DNA of 58,590 bases from assembly GCA_036556765.1 (NCBI GenBank), contig DATBIU010000008.1, positions 1 to 58,590 of the forward strand. The letters are read 5' to 3'. The stretch is from Gemmatimonadaceae bacterium. GTDB taxonomy: Bacteria; Gemmatimonadota; Gemmatimonadetes; Gemmatimonadales; Gemmatimonadaceae. Below the pieces are notes generated by a model that made no database searches, was not told where the DNA came from, and worked only from the letters and a program-made list of their open reading frames with translations. A program made the position numbers and the translations under genes. Positions 7,916-58,590 of this stretch are shown here, piece by piece; position 1 is the stretch's first letter, and each line of letters starts with the position of its first letter.

Positions 7916-8200
7916 TTAACTCACCGCCTCTCCCCCACCGCTCTCCAGCTCGCTCCCGCCGTGCCGGCGGCGGATGTGCTCCATGAGCGAACGGCGTCGC
8001 ATCGACTTCCGCAGCTCAGCGGCAATGTGCGCGCGTCGGGCGGCGTCGAGGAGCCGGTCACTCAAGCGCTCCATCTCGCCCGTCGATTCGTCGGCGACGT
8101 TGTTGACGTCGCAGAGCTCTTCAATGCTCCGATTCAGGTCGGCCTGCACCTGATCGAGCATGGAGCGCGACGGATCACGCGGCTTTCCTCGAAAGGTCAT
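7916..8200 (-). CDS. Small helical protein (module A of a local protein family)
   Basis: Translates as MTFRGKPRDPSRSMLDQVQADLNRSIEELCDVNNVADESTGEMERLSDRLLDAARRAH... and aligns with the N-terminal half of the 56286-56825 product. Start is the ATG at 8198-8200. Confidence 0.6.
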   Translation of the reverse strand: MTFRGKPRDPSRSMLDQVQADLNRSIEELCDVNNVADESTGEMERLSDRLLDAARRAHIAAELRKSMRRRSLMEHIRRRHGGSELESGGGEAVS

Positions 8201-8385
8201 AAGCGCCTCTCTTTCTTCCCCTCGCAGCCGCGGGCTCAGCGGCGAGCTCGCCTCGGCACGGAGGGCGTAACCATCAAAGCAAACTCTGTGCTTCCTCGGT
8301 AACCGTCGAGGAGCCGAGTCACATGTTTCTGGTGCGCGAGCGGAGGCGTGAGTGTGACCGGGCGCACGCAGCCCAAAGGACAGTA

Positions 8386-37572: not shown

Positions 37573-37841
37573 GGCCCCTTCCTGGGGCACGCGGCAAGTG
37601 CGGTCGAACGAGACCGGAGATGGGGTGGGTGCAAGCGCGACGGGATGGAGGCCAGGGTCCCGAAAGAAGGACGAGTGGGCGCACACGCCGTTTCGGTCGC
37701 CGGCGGGTCCGCCGGGGCCTGCAACTCACTGTCGGGCAAGTGATTTAGCCCATGGCACATGCGTTGCCAATCTCACGTCCTTGCCGGCCCTCCCCACCCG
37801 CGCGGCGCGGGGCCCGAGGGTCGCCTAACATGGAGGAGGTC

Positions 37842-38189
37842 ATGGCAGCAGACCGCAAGAAGGGCTCGGGCGGTGGGGGATCACGGGGCGGGGAATCGTC
37901 CCGCGGATCGACCTCGGCCCCGGGGCCGAGCACGCGGCCGGTGAAGGAGGGCCTCGAGGGAAGCATCCTCGAAGGCAACGAGTCGGCGCAGGGGGAGGGG
38001 CAGCGGCGAAGCACCGGCGCCGGATCGGAGGCGACCGAGGGCATTCACGGGGCATCCCCGGGCCACGATACCGCACGTGGCGAGTCGGATCGTCCGGGCT
38101 CCGAGCCCATGGAAGGCTCCGAGCAGCAGCACGTCAGTGGCTACGGCGGAGCCGGCGGCGTCCCGAAGACGAGCTCTGACCAGAGGTAA
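37842..38189 (+). CDS. Small Gly/Ser/Glu-rich, probably disordered protein
   Basis: GGAGGAGG lies directly upstream of the ATG at 37842. Third codon positions are mostly G or C. I recognise no family. Confidence 0.45.
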   Translation: MAADRKKGSGGGGSRGGESSRGSTSAPGPSTRPVKEGLEGSILEGNESAQGEGQRRSTGAGSEATEGIHGASPGHDTARGESDRPGSEPMEGSEQQHVSGYGGAGGVPKTSSDQR

Positions 38190-55863: not shown

Positions 55864-55911
55864 TCTGACCCGCCCGTGCACGAGGGTACAGGTCGTGCAC
55901 CGGCGCGGCGC

Positions 55912-56211
55912 ATGGCGCTGCGAGAGTTCACAGACGAGAAGGGATGTCGCTGGCGGGTGTGGGACATCCGTCCCGAGCAGATGCACGCGGCCACGCGCGC
56001 TGAGGACCATCTTCAGAGCGTGATCAACGGGTGGCTCGCGTTCGAGCCGGCGGGAGGGGGCGAGAAGCGGCGCCTCGCTCCCATTCCCGCTCGCTGGGAG
56101 AGCGCAACCGAGACGGAGTTATGGCGTCTCCTCGAGCAGGCGCACCCCCTGCTGGGGGATGGCGGCTCGTGGCGTCGGCGAGACGGTCAGCCTCCGAGCG
56201 ACACCGCTTGA
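55912..56211 (+). CDS. Small protein, module B only (REFTD-WRVW-GWLAFE domain)
   Basis: Translates as MALREFTDEKGCRWRVWDIRPE...NGWLAFEPAGGGEKRRLAPIPARW and aligns with the C-terminal half of the next gene. Confidence 0.6.
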   Translation: MALREFTDEKGCRWRVWDIRPEQMHAATRAEDHLQSVINGWLAFEPAGGGEKRRLAPIPARWESATETELWRLLEQAHPLLGDGGSWRRRDGQPPSDTA

Positions 56212-56285
56212 GGGCAAGGCACGAGGGTTGCGCGAGGAACCCCACATATCGCCGCTACCCAACGTCTTGCGCGTGAGCCCATCGC

Positions 56286-56825
56286 ATGACCACGCCTCCG
56301 TCGCCGCAGTCGGATCCCATCGTCGTCGCCCTGAAGGACACTGAAGCCGAGCTTGCCGAGAAGCTTCAGGAGGCCTGCGTTCCCGACGCGAGGGAAGTGT
56401 CGGACGAATCCACCGCCGAGCTGGCGAAGCTGAGCGACTCGCTCCTCGCCGCGGCGCGCGCCGCGAAGGACGTGGTGTCCCTTCGCAAGCGGCGCCAGGA
56501 GCGGGCGGCGACCGACGGTGCGACGGCGGGCGAGACCATCCGCGAGTTCACCGATCGCGATGGCAGGGCGTGGCGGGTATGGGCGGTGACACCCACTCGC
56601 TCCCGCGGCTCGAAACGCGAGTCGAACCTCGGGGAGTTCGAGCACGGGTGGCTGGCCTTCGAGACGCTCGACGAGAATCTGCGGAAGCGTCTTCCGCACT
56701 ACCCCGCCGACTGGCACACCATGTCGGACGAGAAGCTCCAGGTTCTGCTTGGACTTGCGCTGGAGGCGCCCACCCGCCGCCCCGATGCGCGGCGGCCCGA
56801 TCCCCCCAGCCAGCCGCCGCGCTGA
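56286..56825 (+). CDS. Module A + module B fusion protein
   Basis: The N-terminal SDESTAELAKLSDSLLAAARAA matches the 7916-8200 product. The C-terminal IREFTDRDGRAWRVWAVTP...HGWLAFETLDENLRKRLPHYPADW matches the 55912-56211 product. Confidence 0.65.
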   Translation: MTTPPSPQSDPIVVALKDTEAELAEKLQEACVPDAREVSDESTAELAKLSDSLLAAARAAKDVVSLRKRRQERAATDGATAGETIREFTDRDGRAWRVWAVTPTRSRGSKRESNLGEFEHGWLAFETLDENLRKRLPHYPADWHTMSDEKLQVLLGLALEAPTRRPDARRPDPPSQPPR

Positions 56826-56828
56826 CGG

Positions 56829-57185
56829 TCAGGCGTTAGGCGTCCGACCGTTCGGCGACGAGGGCGCCTCGGGCGGCACGGCGGGAATCTCCGCCGAAGT
56901 ACGCCGCGTGCGCCGCGGCTGAAAGAGCGTTGGGTCGTCGTGCCATACCGCCGATGCCTGCGCGCGTGCGCCATCGTGGTCGTCGAACGACTGCTCCTGG
57001 TCGTAGAGCACCTCCGACAGGAGCTGCGCGGTGGCGTCCTCCGGCCAGTTGGCGCGGAGCTCCGCTCTCAGCCTGGCCAACTCCGCCGCGGACCGTGCGT
57101 CCGCGGCAATGTCCACGTATCGCTGATACTCCTCGCTTCGCATCCACCGTCTGGTCGCGTCTGGCATTCTCGCCACCTCGGGCAC
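56829..57185 (-). CDS. Hypothetical small protein
   Basis: An ORF of plausible composition that is convergent with 56286-56825. I recognise no family. Confidence 0.4.
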   Translation of the reverse strand: MPEVARMPDATRRWMRSEEYQRYVDIAADARSAAELARLRAELRANWPEDATAQLLSEVLYDQEQSFDDHDGARAQASAVWHDDPTLFQPRRTRRTSAEIPAVPPEAPSSPNGRTPNA

Positions 57186-57345: not shown

Positions 57346-58227
57346 GTGGCCATGCGTCGCGGTCGGGGTGGGGGCAGATCGCTGGTCTGGGCAGTGGCGC
57401 TGTGCGCGATCGGCGCCTGCGGCGGTGGAGCACGCCCGTCACCGGGGCCCAGCCCTGTCGAGACCACATGCGCGCTCGCGCAAGCGCCATCGATACTCGC
57501 CGACACGGCCACTCTCCACTTTCGCGCGCTCGACGTGCCAACCGCCACGTGCGCCCAAACGCTGGCGGCCGAGTGGCTTCGTCCGTGGGCGACGGGATCT
57601 TCCAGTCGCTGGACCGTTCGCATCGGCCTCAATCCCACGGGCGCCTCGGTGCGCCGGCTCGATGGCGAGGGCGCCCGCAACGCTGTCGACGCCGGGCACG
57701 CCGTGCTTGCGACGGAGGATCTCGAGCTCGTGGCCTATGCGTCCGCCCGGGCGGATCTGGAGGTCACGCCGCTGCCGTGGGACCGCACCTATCTGGTCCT
57801 CTCCCCGGCGCCCGTCGCCGCGTTAGGCGCAGGAGCCGGCCCCGATGCCGTGCGGGTCGATGCCCGCGCGGCGGAATCATGGGAATGCGAATTCGTCCCG
57901 GGTGGAACGCCTCCCGACACCACCCCCCTGCGATCGCGGCGCATCCTTTACGCCGTCGGCGACCGGACCGCGCGGGAGCTCGCCGCGCGCATCGTCGCGC
58001 TCACGGAGGACGGCGAGGTCACCGCCATCGGGAGGAGCGCCTCGGAGCTCGATAGCGCGCTCATCGCCGGTGACGAGCTGGGGTACGTCATTTCGGTCGC
58101 GCGAGGGTCTCGATGCGGCGCGATTACCGCGATCGCCGCCAGGGCGTCGTGGGTGGGCTCGCATTCACTCCGTCCGCTCGTCGACACGCGAGCCTACGGC
58201 ATCGCACCGCGGGAGCCGCGGCCATGA
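57346..58227 (+). CDS. Hypothetical lipoprotein
   Basis: Lipobox CAIGACGG. ATGA overlap with the downstream partial gene. Confidence 0.55.
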   Translation: MAMRRGRGGGRSLVWAVALCAIGACGGGARPSPGPSPVETTCALAQAPSILADTATLHFRALDVPTATCAQTLAAEWLRPWATGSSSRWTVRIGLNPTGASVRRLDGEGARNAVDAGHAVLATEDLELVAYASARADLEVTPLPWDRTYLVLSPAPVAALGAGAGPDAVRVDARAAESWECEFVPGGTPPDTTPLRSRRILYAVGDRTARELAARIVALTEDGEVTAIGRSASELDSALIAGDELGYVISVARGSRCGAITAIAARASWVGSHSLRPLVDTRAYGIAPREPRP

Positions 58228-58590
58228 CGTTTCGCGCCCGCATCTCCGTCGCGTTCGTCGTGGCGGCGACTATTCCTCTCTTCGTGCTCGCGCACGGCGT
58301 GCGACGCGAAGTCACGCGCAGGCTCACGGCCCAGCATGAACGCCGCGTGAGAACGCTCGTGGACATCGTCCGCCAGGACCTCGCGCGCGAGAGCGCGTCG
58401 ATCGCCGCGCGACTCGAGATTCTCGAAGCCGATCTTGCATCTGACAACCGCTTTCGGCTCGGCGCGGTTCGTGGCGATGACGCGCATCGGCGATACGTGC
58501 TCGATTGGGCCGAGGGCGCGATGGAGATCGCTGGACTTTCGGTGCTCCGCGTCTACGACGACTCGGGACGCATCGTCAGCTCCGGTCACT
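58224..58590 (+). CDS. N-terminal part of a membrane-anchored sensor protein (probably a histidine kinase); runs off the window end
   Basis: From the ATG at 58224 it translates as MTFRARISVAFVVAATIPLFVLAHGVRREVTRRL..., one TM helix followed by a periplasmic-type region. It is absent from the ORF track because no stop lies in the window. The kinase identity is inference only. Confidence 0.4.
   Translation, partial: MTFRARISVAFVVAATIPLFVLAHGVRREVTRRLTAQHERRVRTLVDIVRQDLARESASIAARLEILEADLASDNRFRLGAVRGDDAHRRYVLDWAEGAMEIAGLSVLRVYDDSGRIVSSGH

Follow-up and report, generated by a model that had tools for sequence, protein, structure and literature searches.

Negative regulators encoded within sigma-54 regulons are an established theme in bacterial gene control, as exemplified by PspA and PspF. 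The Gre and DksA factors join an N-terminal coiled-coil hairpin with a conserved acidic tip to a globular domain, a design taken here as a lead only. Genes of the clpB, otsA, CsbD and BON type, for their part, are driven by RpoS or SigB in model bacteria. Here we compare with these systems a locus on a contig of 58,590 nucleotides (nt) from a Gemmatimonadaceae bacterium (GenBank assembly GCA_036556765.1, contig DATBIU010000008.1; contig C8 of genome G000), the full length of which is referred to below as the window. Three open reading frames (ORFs) in the window specify small proteins composed of two modules, A and B: one is an AB fusion, one contains B and one contains A (Table 1). The source is a metagenome-assembled genome of 2.58 Mb, 72% complete and with 68% G+C. 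In dry soils and rhizospheres, Gemmatimonadaceae rank with the most abundant bacteria, and their stress survival is almost unstudied. Literature searches found nothing on this protein family, nor on sigma-54 in Gemmatimonadetes beyond a comparative survey from 2011.

The analysis leads us to a reading that we place somewhat on the probable side: the three ORFs represent a two-module Gemmatimonadaceae family, in which the genes that begin with module A (A-first genes) form part of a sigma-54 regulon of stress type, and the products are small, acidic, cytoplasmic, protein-binding factors.

Results

Two modules found alone, doubled and fused

The three ORFs named in the original prediction are all present in the window. 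BLASTP aligned the AB protein (P0001) with the B protein (P0002) at 39% identity over 72 residues (P0001 positions 85-155; E 8e-14) and with the A protein (P0003) at 41% identity over 74 residues (P0001 positions 1-74; E 2e-11). Both alignments are significant and the similarity lies far above chance. These results uphold the proposal that the 179-residue product is a fusion whose N-terminal part corresponds to the stand-alone A protein and whose C-terminal part corresponds to the adjacent B protein. Beyond module B, P0001 ends in a Pro/Arg-rich tail modelled with low confidence. A fourth locus of the family in G000 encodes a module B (contig C192:6155-6415).

A word-indexed search returned 214 homologues of P0001, from 96% down to 45% identity and nearly all 175-185 amino acids (aa) long; those with a name are all entered as a "hypothetical protein" from Gemmatimonadaceae. 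Orthologs of the AB protein mostly measure about 178-180 aa, a length kept down to 45% identity. Among 1.84 billion cluster representatives, a profile search retrieved 1914 sequences at E<=1e-3, of which 464 reach E<=1e-10 and 61 reach E<=1e-30. Hidden Markov models (HMMs) of the two modules, built in this analysis, matched 272 of 273 collected proteins, which divide into 200 AB, 38 B, 25 BB, four A, three BA, one ABB and one AAB. Six-frame scans of loci fetched from related genomes gave 68 B, 16 AB, 11 BB, four A, three BA and one BBB. Since AB and BA are both seen and A and B also stand alone, fusion occurs in both orders and the modules are separable. The second copy in BB proteins is a divergent subtype (R-x-F-x-Y-P-x-G-R-x-W ... 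L-R-F-[ST]-S-G ... W-P-x-x-W). A search for longer fused forms gave BB and AB proteins only, none with a Pfam domain. The sole clearly longer architecture seen was P0216, a 377-aa protein from a Logan contig in which BB is followed by some 190 additional C-terminal residues, apparently helical and without a Pfam match.

The stand-alone forms differ in their standing. A near-identical 94-aa cluster representative of P0003 exists (P0273) and A-only genes occur in four other genera, which argues that the A-only protein is not a one-off truncation. As for the "B alone" class, single-B proteins are common elsewhere, and to that extent the class holds; the window's own copy, however, does not exemplify it. 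P0002 is 87% identical to residues 7-85, the first B, of a 199-aa BB protein (P0124) encoded by the close relative L001, and DNA alignment with L001 and genome G009 shows that the roughly 300 nt which encode the second B there are missing from the window. Thus, the 99-aa gene is a shortened BB gene.

Family matches were found in 27 of 61 sampled Gemmatimonadaceae genera (a tally that takes in two matches in the unpublished genome G034, on which no other claim rests). In the phylum outside Gemmatimonadaceae, two of 65 genomes gave matches, both weak. As judged from these searches, the family is almost restricted to Gemmatimonadaceae. The genome-wide copy count and neighbourhood analysis called for by the original prediction revealed up to 29 matches per genome and clusters of paralogs, often adjoining one another in tandem or divergent orientation. 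No conserved partner other than paralogs emerged from a census of 136 neighbouring ORFs lying within 700 nt; these represent 149 Pfam families, of which histidine kinase and response regulator domains are the commonest (five each). At 11 of 16 AB loci, the fetched stretch also contains a B-first gene, usually adjacent to the AB gene. Fusion in both orders and this clustering lend indirect support to the suggestion that A and B act together. A-alone genes are not adjacent to B genes, and the "B alone" gene of the window is derived. Three distant members were recovered on contigs of 1-2 kb only. At two loci (L009, G047:C76; L013, G054:C30), the G+C content at third codon positions (GC3) of the family genes is 0.62-0.75, against about 0.78 or above in most neighbouring ORFs, which hints at fast evolution, low expression or recent acquisition.

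Putative sigma-54 promoters in front of A-first genes

The presumptive promoter of the AB gene (Table 1) contains the exact GGCAC-N5-TTGC core (hereafter the strict core) of the sigma-54 consensus TGGCAC-N5-TTGC. The extended site reads AGGCACGAGGGTTGC, with one mismatch to the 15-nt consensus, and its GG and GC dinucleotides lie exactly 10 nt apart, the spacing expected of such promoters. From the usual sigma-54 geometry, the AB transcript is predicted to start near 56242-56244. Genome G000 encodes RpoN (Sigma54_DBD on contig C58, E 4e-64) and at least 10 full Sigma54_activat domains, those of enhancer-binding proteins, and holds 13 strict cores in its 2.58 Mb. The promoter motif occupies the same place in the orthologous loci of L001, with the same spacer, and of G009, with the spacer GGCCG; eight further A-first genes carry the strict motif with other spacers.

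The survey of promoters covered 73 loci from other genomes, 425 kb in all. It contained 16 strict cores, 11 of which, correctly oriented, stand 45-106 nt ahead of a family gene. Of the 19 A-first genes outside the window, 10 have a strict core in the 200 nt before them, compared with one of 81 B-first genes and two of 252 neighbouring non-family genes. Seven of the 10 A-first genes are AB and three are A-only, and they represent seven genera and a metagenome contig (G009 and G037, two each; G054, G025, G049, G033, G047 and the L001 contig); their N5 spacers differ and the promoter lies 45-95 nt before the start codon. The variation of the spacer across so many genera argues for selection on the -24 and -12 elements themselves. 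Three of the four A-only genes in other genera have the strict motif at -45 to -85. The full consensus with its leading T was discarded as a search pattern for being too strict: the T is found in none of the 11 strict family promoters (10 A-first and one B-first).

Weaker boxes occur in front of B-first genes (Table 1). In the G009 ortholog of the window B gene the box is GGCAC-N5-CTGC, at -27; GG(C/T)AC-N6-TGC starting 27-30 nt before the ATG is seen in several B and BB genes. Such a position implies leaderless transcripts, and these boxes are candidates only. A perfect inverted repeat, GTGCACGA-N9-TCGTGCAC, read directly from the sequence at 55876-55900 between the DUF2911 stop codon and the start of the B gene, overlaps the window's candidate box; L001 retains part of it, and it may form a terminator hairpin or serve as an operator. 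A half-palindrome of CRP/FNR type, GTGA-N6-TCAC, lies upstream of 21 of 100 family genes versus seven of 252 neighbours. In three cases (L020, L021 and G000:C192:6040-6074) the sequence (T)GTGA-N6-TCAC(A) precedes the -24 box by exactly 5 nt, a position that is unusual for a regulator site at a sigma-54 promoter. No strong new motif emerged when k-mer enrichment was analysed upstream of B-first genes.

Strict sigma-54 cores precede stress-type genes

In G000, the surroundings of 10 of the 13 strict cores look non-coding, as against 16 of 71 matches to four control patterns. The ORFs behind strict cores include those for CsbD-like, Holin-X/YqjE-like and YMGG Gly-zipper proteins, two BON-domain proteins, a dienelactone hydrolase, an erythromycin-esterase-like protein and a Gly/Ser-rich 115-aa ORF product. 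The latter ORF is itself in the window (37842-38189, plus strand). Its product is Gly/Ser/Glu-rich and hydrophilic, matches no Pfam family and looks like a hydrophilin-type stress protein. About 75 nt before it stands a perfect sigma-54 consensus, TGGCACATGCGTTGC (37753-37767), and the identical 15-mer is also present in G039 and G011.

Genomes G029, G039 and G011 together contain 51 strict cores, and in all three clpB is downstream of one of them. Strict cores in these genomes also precede otsA (glycosyltransferase family 20), CsbD, DUF892/YciF-like, Transgly_assoc/YeaQ-like and MlaE genes; a further otsA case was found in G033 (L042). A conserved lipoprotein with a GSILGG motif is likewise preceded by a strict core. 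The survey of stress genes took in G000 contigs C55, C72, C97, C119, C143, C158, C208 and C226 and loci L088-L138, and showed strict-core stress genes to be dispersed in the Gemmatimonadaceae genomes, not gathered in a single island. To go by these motifs and the genes behind them, a general-stress-like regulon is apparently run by sigma-54 in Gemmatimonadaceae.

Predicted structure and conservation of the modules

The AlphaFold modelling proposed in the original prediction was carried out for AB and for B. In the AlphaFold2 (AF2) model of AB, helices span residues 11-30 and 42-77, strands 86-89, 95-101, 122-127 and 133-136, and a last helix 148-157. The mean predicted local distance difference test (pLDDT) value is 76, with confident cores in both modules; the predicted template modelling (pTM) score is 0.45, so no fixed orientation of A relative to B is predicted. 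Module B alone gave a pLDDT of 83 and a pTM of 0.72. Module A (about 65 aa) is thus modelled as an acidic helical hairpin; in module B (about 80 aa), the four strands are modelled as a beta-meander, followed by a helix at the C-terminal end. A complex prediction for AB (residues 8-165) paired with itself scored 0.54, against 0.44 for the single control, a result of no weight either way on self-association.

Module A has three invariant residues, C31, L53 and A60 (C31 being numbered as in P0001), while L12, L16, L23, T43, E45, A56 and R67 are near-invariant. The invariant Cys ends the first helix and a near-invariant (D/E)-(S/T)-T-G-E begins the second, both elements flanking the turn of the hairpin. 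Module B has one invariant Trp (in P-x-x-W) and near-invariant R, G, W, F, P, L and A positions; its conserved Trp/Arg motifs are REFxD, WRVW, GWLxFE, RRL and PxxW. Neither module has a hydrophobic segment, and the median isoelectric point (pI) is 5.2 for A, 5.4 for B and 5.5 for whole proteins.

Searches of known families agreed with the view that neither module can be assigned to a named domain: no match was found in Pfam, NCBIfam, PHROGs, PADLOC or PDB sequences, and the Pfam models placed neither module in a well-characterised family. Against Pfam and NCBIfam, the three window proteins gave best E values of 0.03-0.2, far short of the cut-offs. When 46 B and 29 A modules were scanned singly against Pfam, no family was matched by more than one member, and longer members gave no match. 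PHROGs and PADLOC searches were negative, an Atlas feature search with each module gave no usable match, and PDB profile searches with B and with A returned noise only (E>=0.09). No fold match for B or for the whole protein was found with Foldseek or VIA-align (A was not searched by itself). By the measure of these searches, neither Pfam nor NCBIfam contains the two domains A and B, and the PDB has no recognisable relative of them; as far as domain libraries and literature show, the family and both its domains are undescribed.

The window locus and its relatives

Table 1. Positions of the family genes, modules, candidate promoter elements and adjacent kinase gene in the window.
Feature	Position	Strand	Remarks
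AB gene	56286-56825	+	179 aa, P0001; ORF and translation
Module A of P0001, about residues 8-76	56307-56513	+	boundaries from module HMMs
Module B of P0001, about residues 83-162	56532-56771	+	boundaries from module HMMs
B-only gene	55912-56211	+	99 aa, P0002; ortholog of the BB gene minus the second B
A-only gene	7916-8200	-	94 aa, P0003
Putative sigma-54 (-24/-12) promoter GGCACGAGGGTTGC	56218-56231	+	ends 55 nt before the AB start codon; from motif and position
Candidate sigma-54-like box GGTACAGGTCGTGC	55885-55898	+	starts 27 nt before the B-gene ATG, 14 nt from box to ATG; weaker
Candidate sigma-54-like box AGCACAGAGTTTGC	8279-8292	-	AGCAC-N5-TTGC, 79 nt before the A-only start; one mismatch in GG
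Sensor histidine kinase, N-terminal part	58113-58589	+	cut by the contig end; counterpart in L001 followed by an NtrC-type activator

In the close relative L001, the genes follow one another in the order DUF2911, BB (199 aa) and AB (180 aa), after which come a convergent 112-aa gene, two small genes and finally the genes for a histidine kinase and an NtrC-type sigma-54 activator. The window keeps this order as far as the kinase, where the contig ends. The activator would be a candidate regulator of the AB promoter.

Convergent with AB, the stop codons being 3 nt apart, is a 118-aa ORF (56829-57185, minus strand). It matches no Pfam family, shares 81% identity with the corresponding ORF of L001 and did not turn up beside other family loci. 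Contigs from soil metatranscriptomes contain parts of the 3' half of AB in two runs and the convergent 118-aa ORF in four of four; these contigs have a depth of 2-7 with strand and ends undefined, their uncovered parts are uninformative, and carry-over of DNA is possible. Further downstream, a 293-aa lipoprotein-like ORF of the window (57346-58227, plus strand) corresponds to two called genes of 161 and 163 aa in L001:6924-7953, its second half alone being well conserved (53% identity).

Discussion

From the promoter motifs and the company they keep, we infer that the AB and A genes belong to a sigma-54-dependent, activator-gated regulon of stress type and that the proteins of the family are small acidic cytoplasmic factors working through protein-protein contacts. 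In this reading the two modules fold independently and occur alone, doubled (BB) or fused either way (AB, BA); the AB and A proteins would be made from activator-gated sigma-54 promoters under stress-type control. More speculatively, B might be a recognition domain used in pairs, either covalently in BB or through AB proteins joined by self-association of their A hairpins. Module A, equally speculatively, might serve for oligomerisation or the docking of a partner, possibly with a thiol-dependent step involving its invariant Cys; one may conjecture that this residue has a functional, perhaps redox, role.

Several points weigh against this reading. Protein binding, the pairing of B and a role for the Cys have architecture, charge and conservation as their sole basis, and the sigma-54 promoters of A-first genes were assigned by motif and position alone. 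The enrichment of the motif before A-first genes corresponds to a nominal Fisher p of 5e-8, a value that overstates the case because paralogs and orthologs do not count as independent genes. A script picked the start codons used for other genomes. Nine of the 19 A-first genes are without the strict motif, most of them showing near-consensus sequences (GGTAC, GGCAT, GGAAC or GGCGC followed by N5-TTGC), and B-first genes mostly have no motif, so the family is not uniformly sigma-54 driven. Across the genome, the motif is not more frequent than composition-matched controls; hence the argument rests on the placement of the motif and on the identity of the genes downstream. No shared activator-binding site or enhancer palindrome was found upstream of the sigma-54 boxes, and the kinase/activator pair is near the orthologous locus only, not near other A-first loci.

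The same promoters would also suit feedback modulators, with A or AB binding their own sigma-54 activator or RNA polymerase in the manner of PspA and PspF, and B or BB competing or sensing. The proteins are small, acidic and helical, and a histidine kinase and an NtrC-type activator are encoded 1.3-3 kb downstream at the orthologous locus. The other A-first loci, however, have no activator gene within about 3 kb, and up to 29 copies per genome far exceed the regulators that would need partners. No sequence or fold similarity to PspA or known anti-activators was seen, and the PspA_IM30 Pfam model matched no A module and no whole protein. On balance, we hold this explanation to be unlikely.

Distinctly unlikely, in our judgement, is a combinatorial system, specific to Gemmatimonadaceae, in which constitutive or CRP/FNR-controlled B and BB proteins pair with the sigma-54-induced A-containing proteins and tune the sigma-54 stress response by switching partners or by sensing thiol stress through the Cys. 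Were it true, it would amount to a new kind of regulatory module in a phylum abundant in soil and genetically barely studied.

The expansion within one lineage and the tandem and divergent clusters of paralogs recall polyimmunity loci, where diversifying clustered paralogs neutralise polymorphic-toxin or defence toxins. The B model weakly resembles the predicted model of an Imm33 (PF09951) cluster (template modelling (TM) score 0.49 by query and 0.26 by target, over 65 residues). One BA gene, on a short contig, is downstream of a TIR-domain gene: the contig is a JGI soil contig of 1.7 kb, with the TIR-domain gene (L015:97-504) two genes upstream of BA, a single case. Yet none of the 46 B modules matches the Imm33 Pfam model at E<=0.1, PADLOC found nothing, and no toxin, secretion or defence family figures among the 25 commonest Pfam families of the 136 neighbours. 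Nor are sigma-54 promoters, or an AB ortholog conserved in synteny, what one expects of immunity cassettes. We regard an immunity or antitoxin-like role as very unlikely.

Slightly less probable still is nucleic-acid binding, for instance in the manner of nucleoid-associated factors or RNA chaperones, through the Trp and Arg residues of the B sheet and through Arg-rich tails. Conserved aromatic and basic residues do fall on predicted strands, many members have tails of RRRR type, and the L001 BB protein has a pI of 10.1; against this, the acidic medians given above hold for the module cores and the whole proteins alike, and no match to an OB, Sm, KH, cold-shock or other such fold was seen. Finally, the idea that the similarity is fortuitous, or that the ORFs are non-coding shadows in DNA of 68% G+C where many spurious long ORFs overlap the region, has a negligible chance of being right: homology searches of these sequences refute it and exclude chance similarity, given the pairwise E values (8e-14 and 2e-11), hundreds of homologues that keep length and motifs, confident AF2 models and frames with coding-type GC3.

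The reading of the family as sigma-54-linked, protein-binding stress factors bears on how these bacteria survive stress, and it places Gemmatimonadaceae with the lineages whose general-stress-like gene set appears to be driven by sigma-54. It also concerns a wholly unannotated family of about 1900 sequence clusters, to which the sigma-54 link of the A-first genes offers a testable entry point. Lineage-specific, expanded small stress-regulon proteins with shuffled domains are of a familiar kind; the family itself is, to go by the library and literature searches, undescribed.

Comparison with known systems

PspA/PspF resembles the present family in that a sigma-54-dependent gene, putatively so here, codes for a small protein with a helical hairpin, and an NtrC-type activator lies near the orthologous locus; it differs in that module A is a single hairpin of 65 aa, most family loci have no adjacent activator and no similarity to PspA was seen. 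Imm33 and polyimmunity loci are alike in their clustered small paralogs and in the weak shape resemblance of B, and unlike in the absence of a sequence match and of toxin or secretion neighbours among those seen, and in the putative stress-type sigma-54 regulation of the A/B family.

The Gre and DksA factors resemble AB in size (about 160-180 aa), in the order of hairpin and then globular domain, and in conserved acidic residues near the turn of the hairpin. The A/B modules, in contrast, also occur separately, doubled and reversed, arrangements that Gre factors are not known to adopt, and the A/B family has no Zn finger. Chains of Gre, Gfh1, Rnk and DksA were not among the fold matches listed by Foldseek and VIA-align.

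CsbD/YjbJ (PF05532), BON/OsmY-like and YciF-like proteins are comparable as small soluble products of stress regulons whose biochemistry is undefined, and the CsbD, BON and DUF892 genes of these genomes have the same type of putative sigma-54 promoter as A-first genes. No sequence relationship joins them to the A/B family: no A module matched the CsbD model, which genuine CsbD genes of the same genomes match at E 4e-13 and 1.5e-14. Unlike these proteins, the A/B family is made of recombining modules, belongs to one bacterial family and reaches 29 matches per genome.

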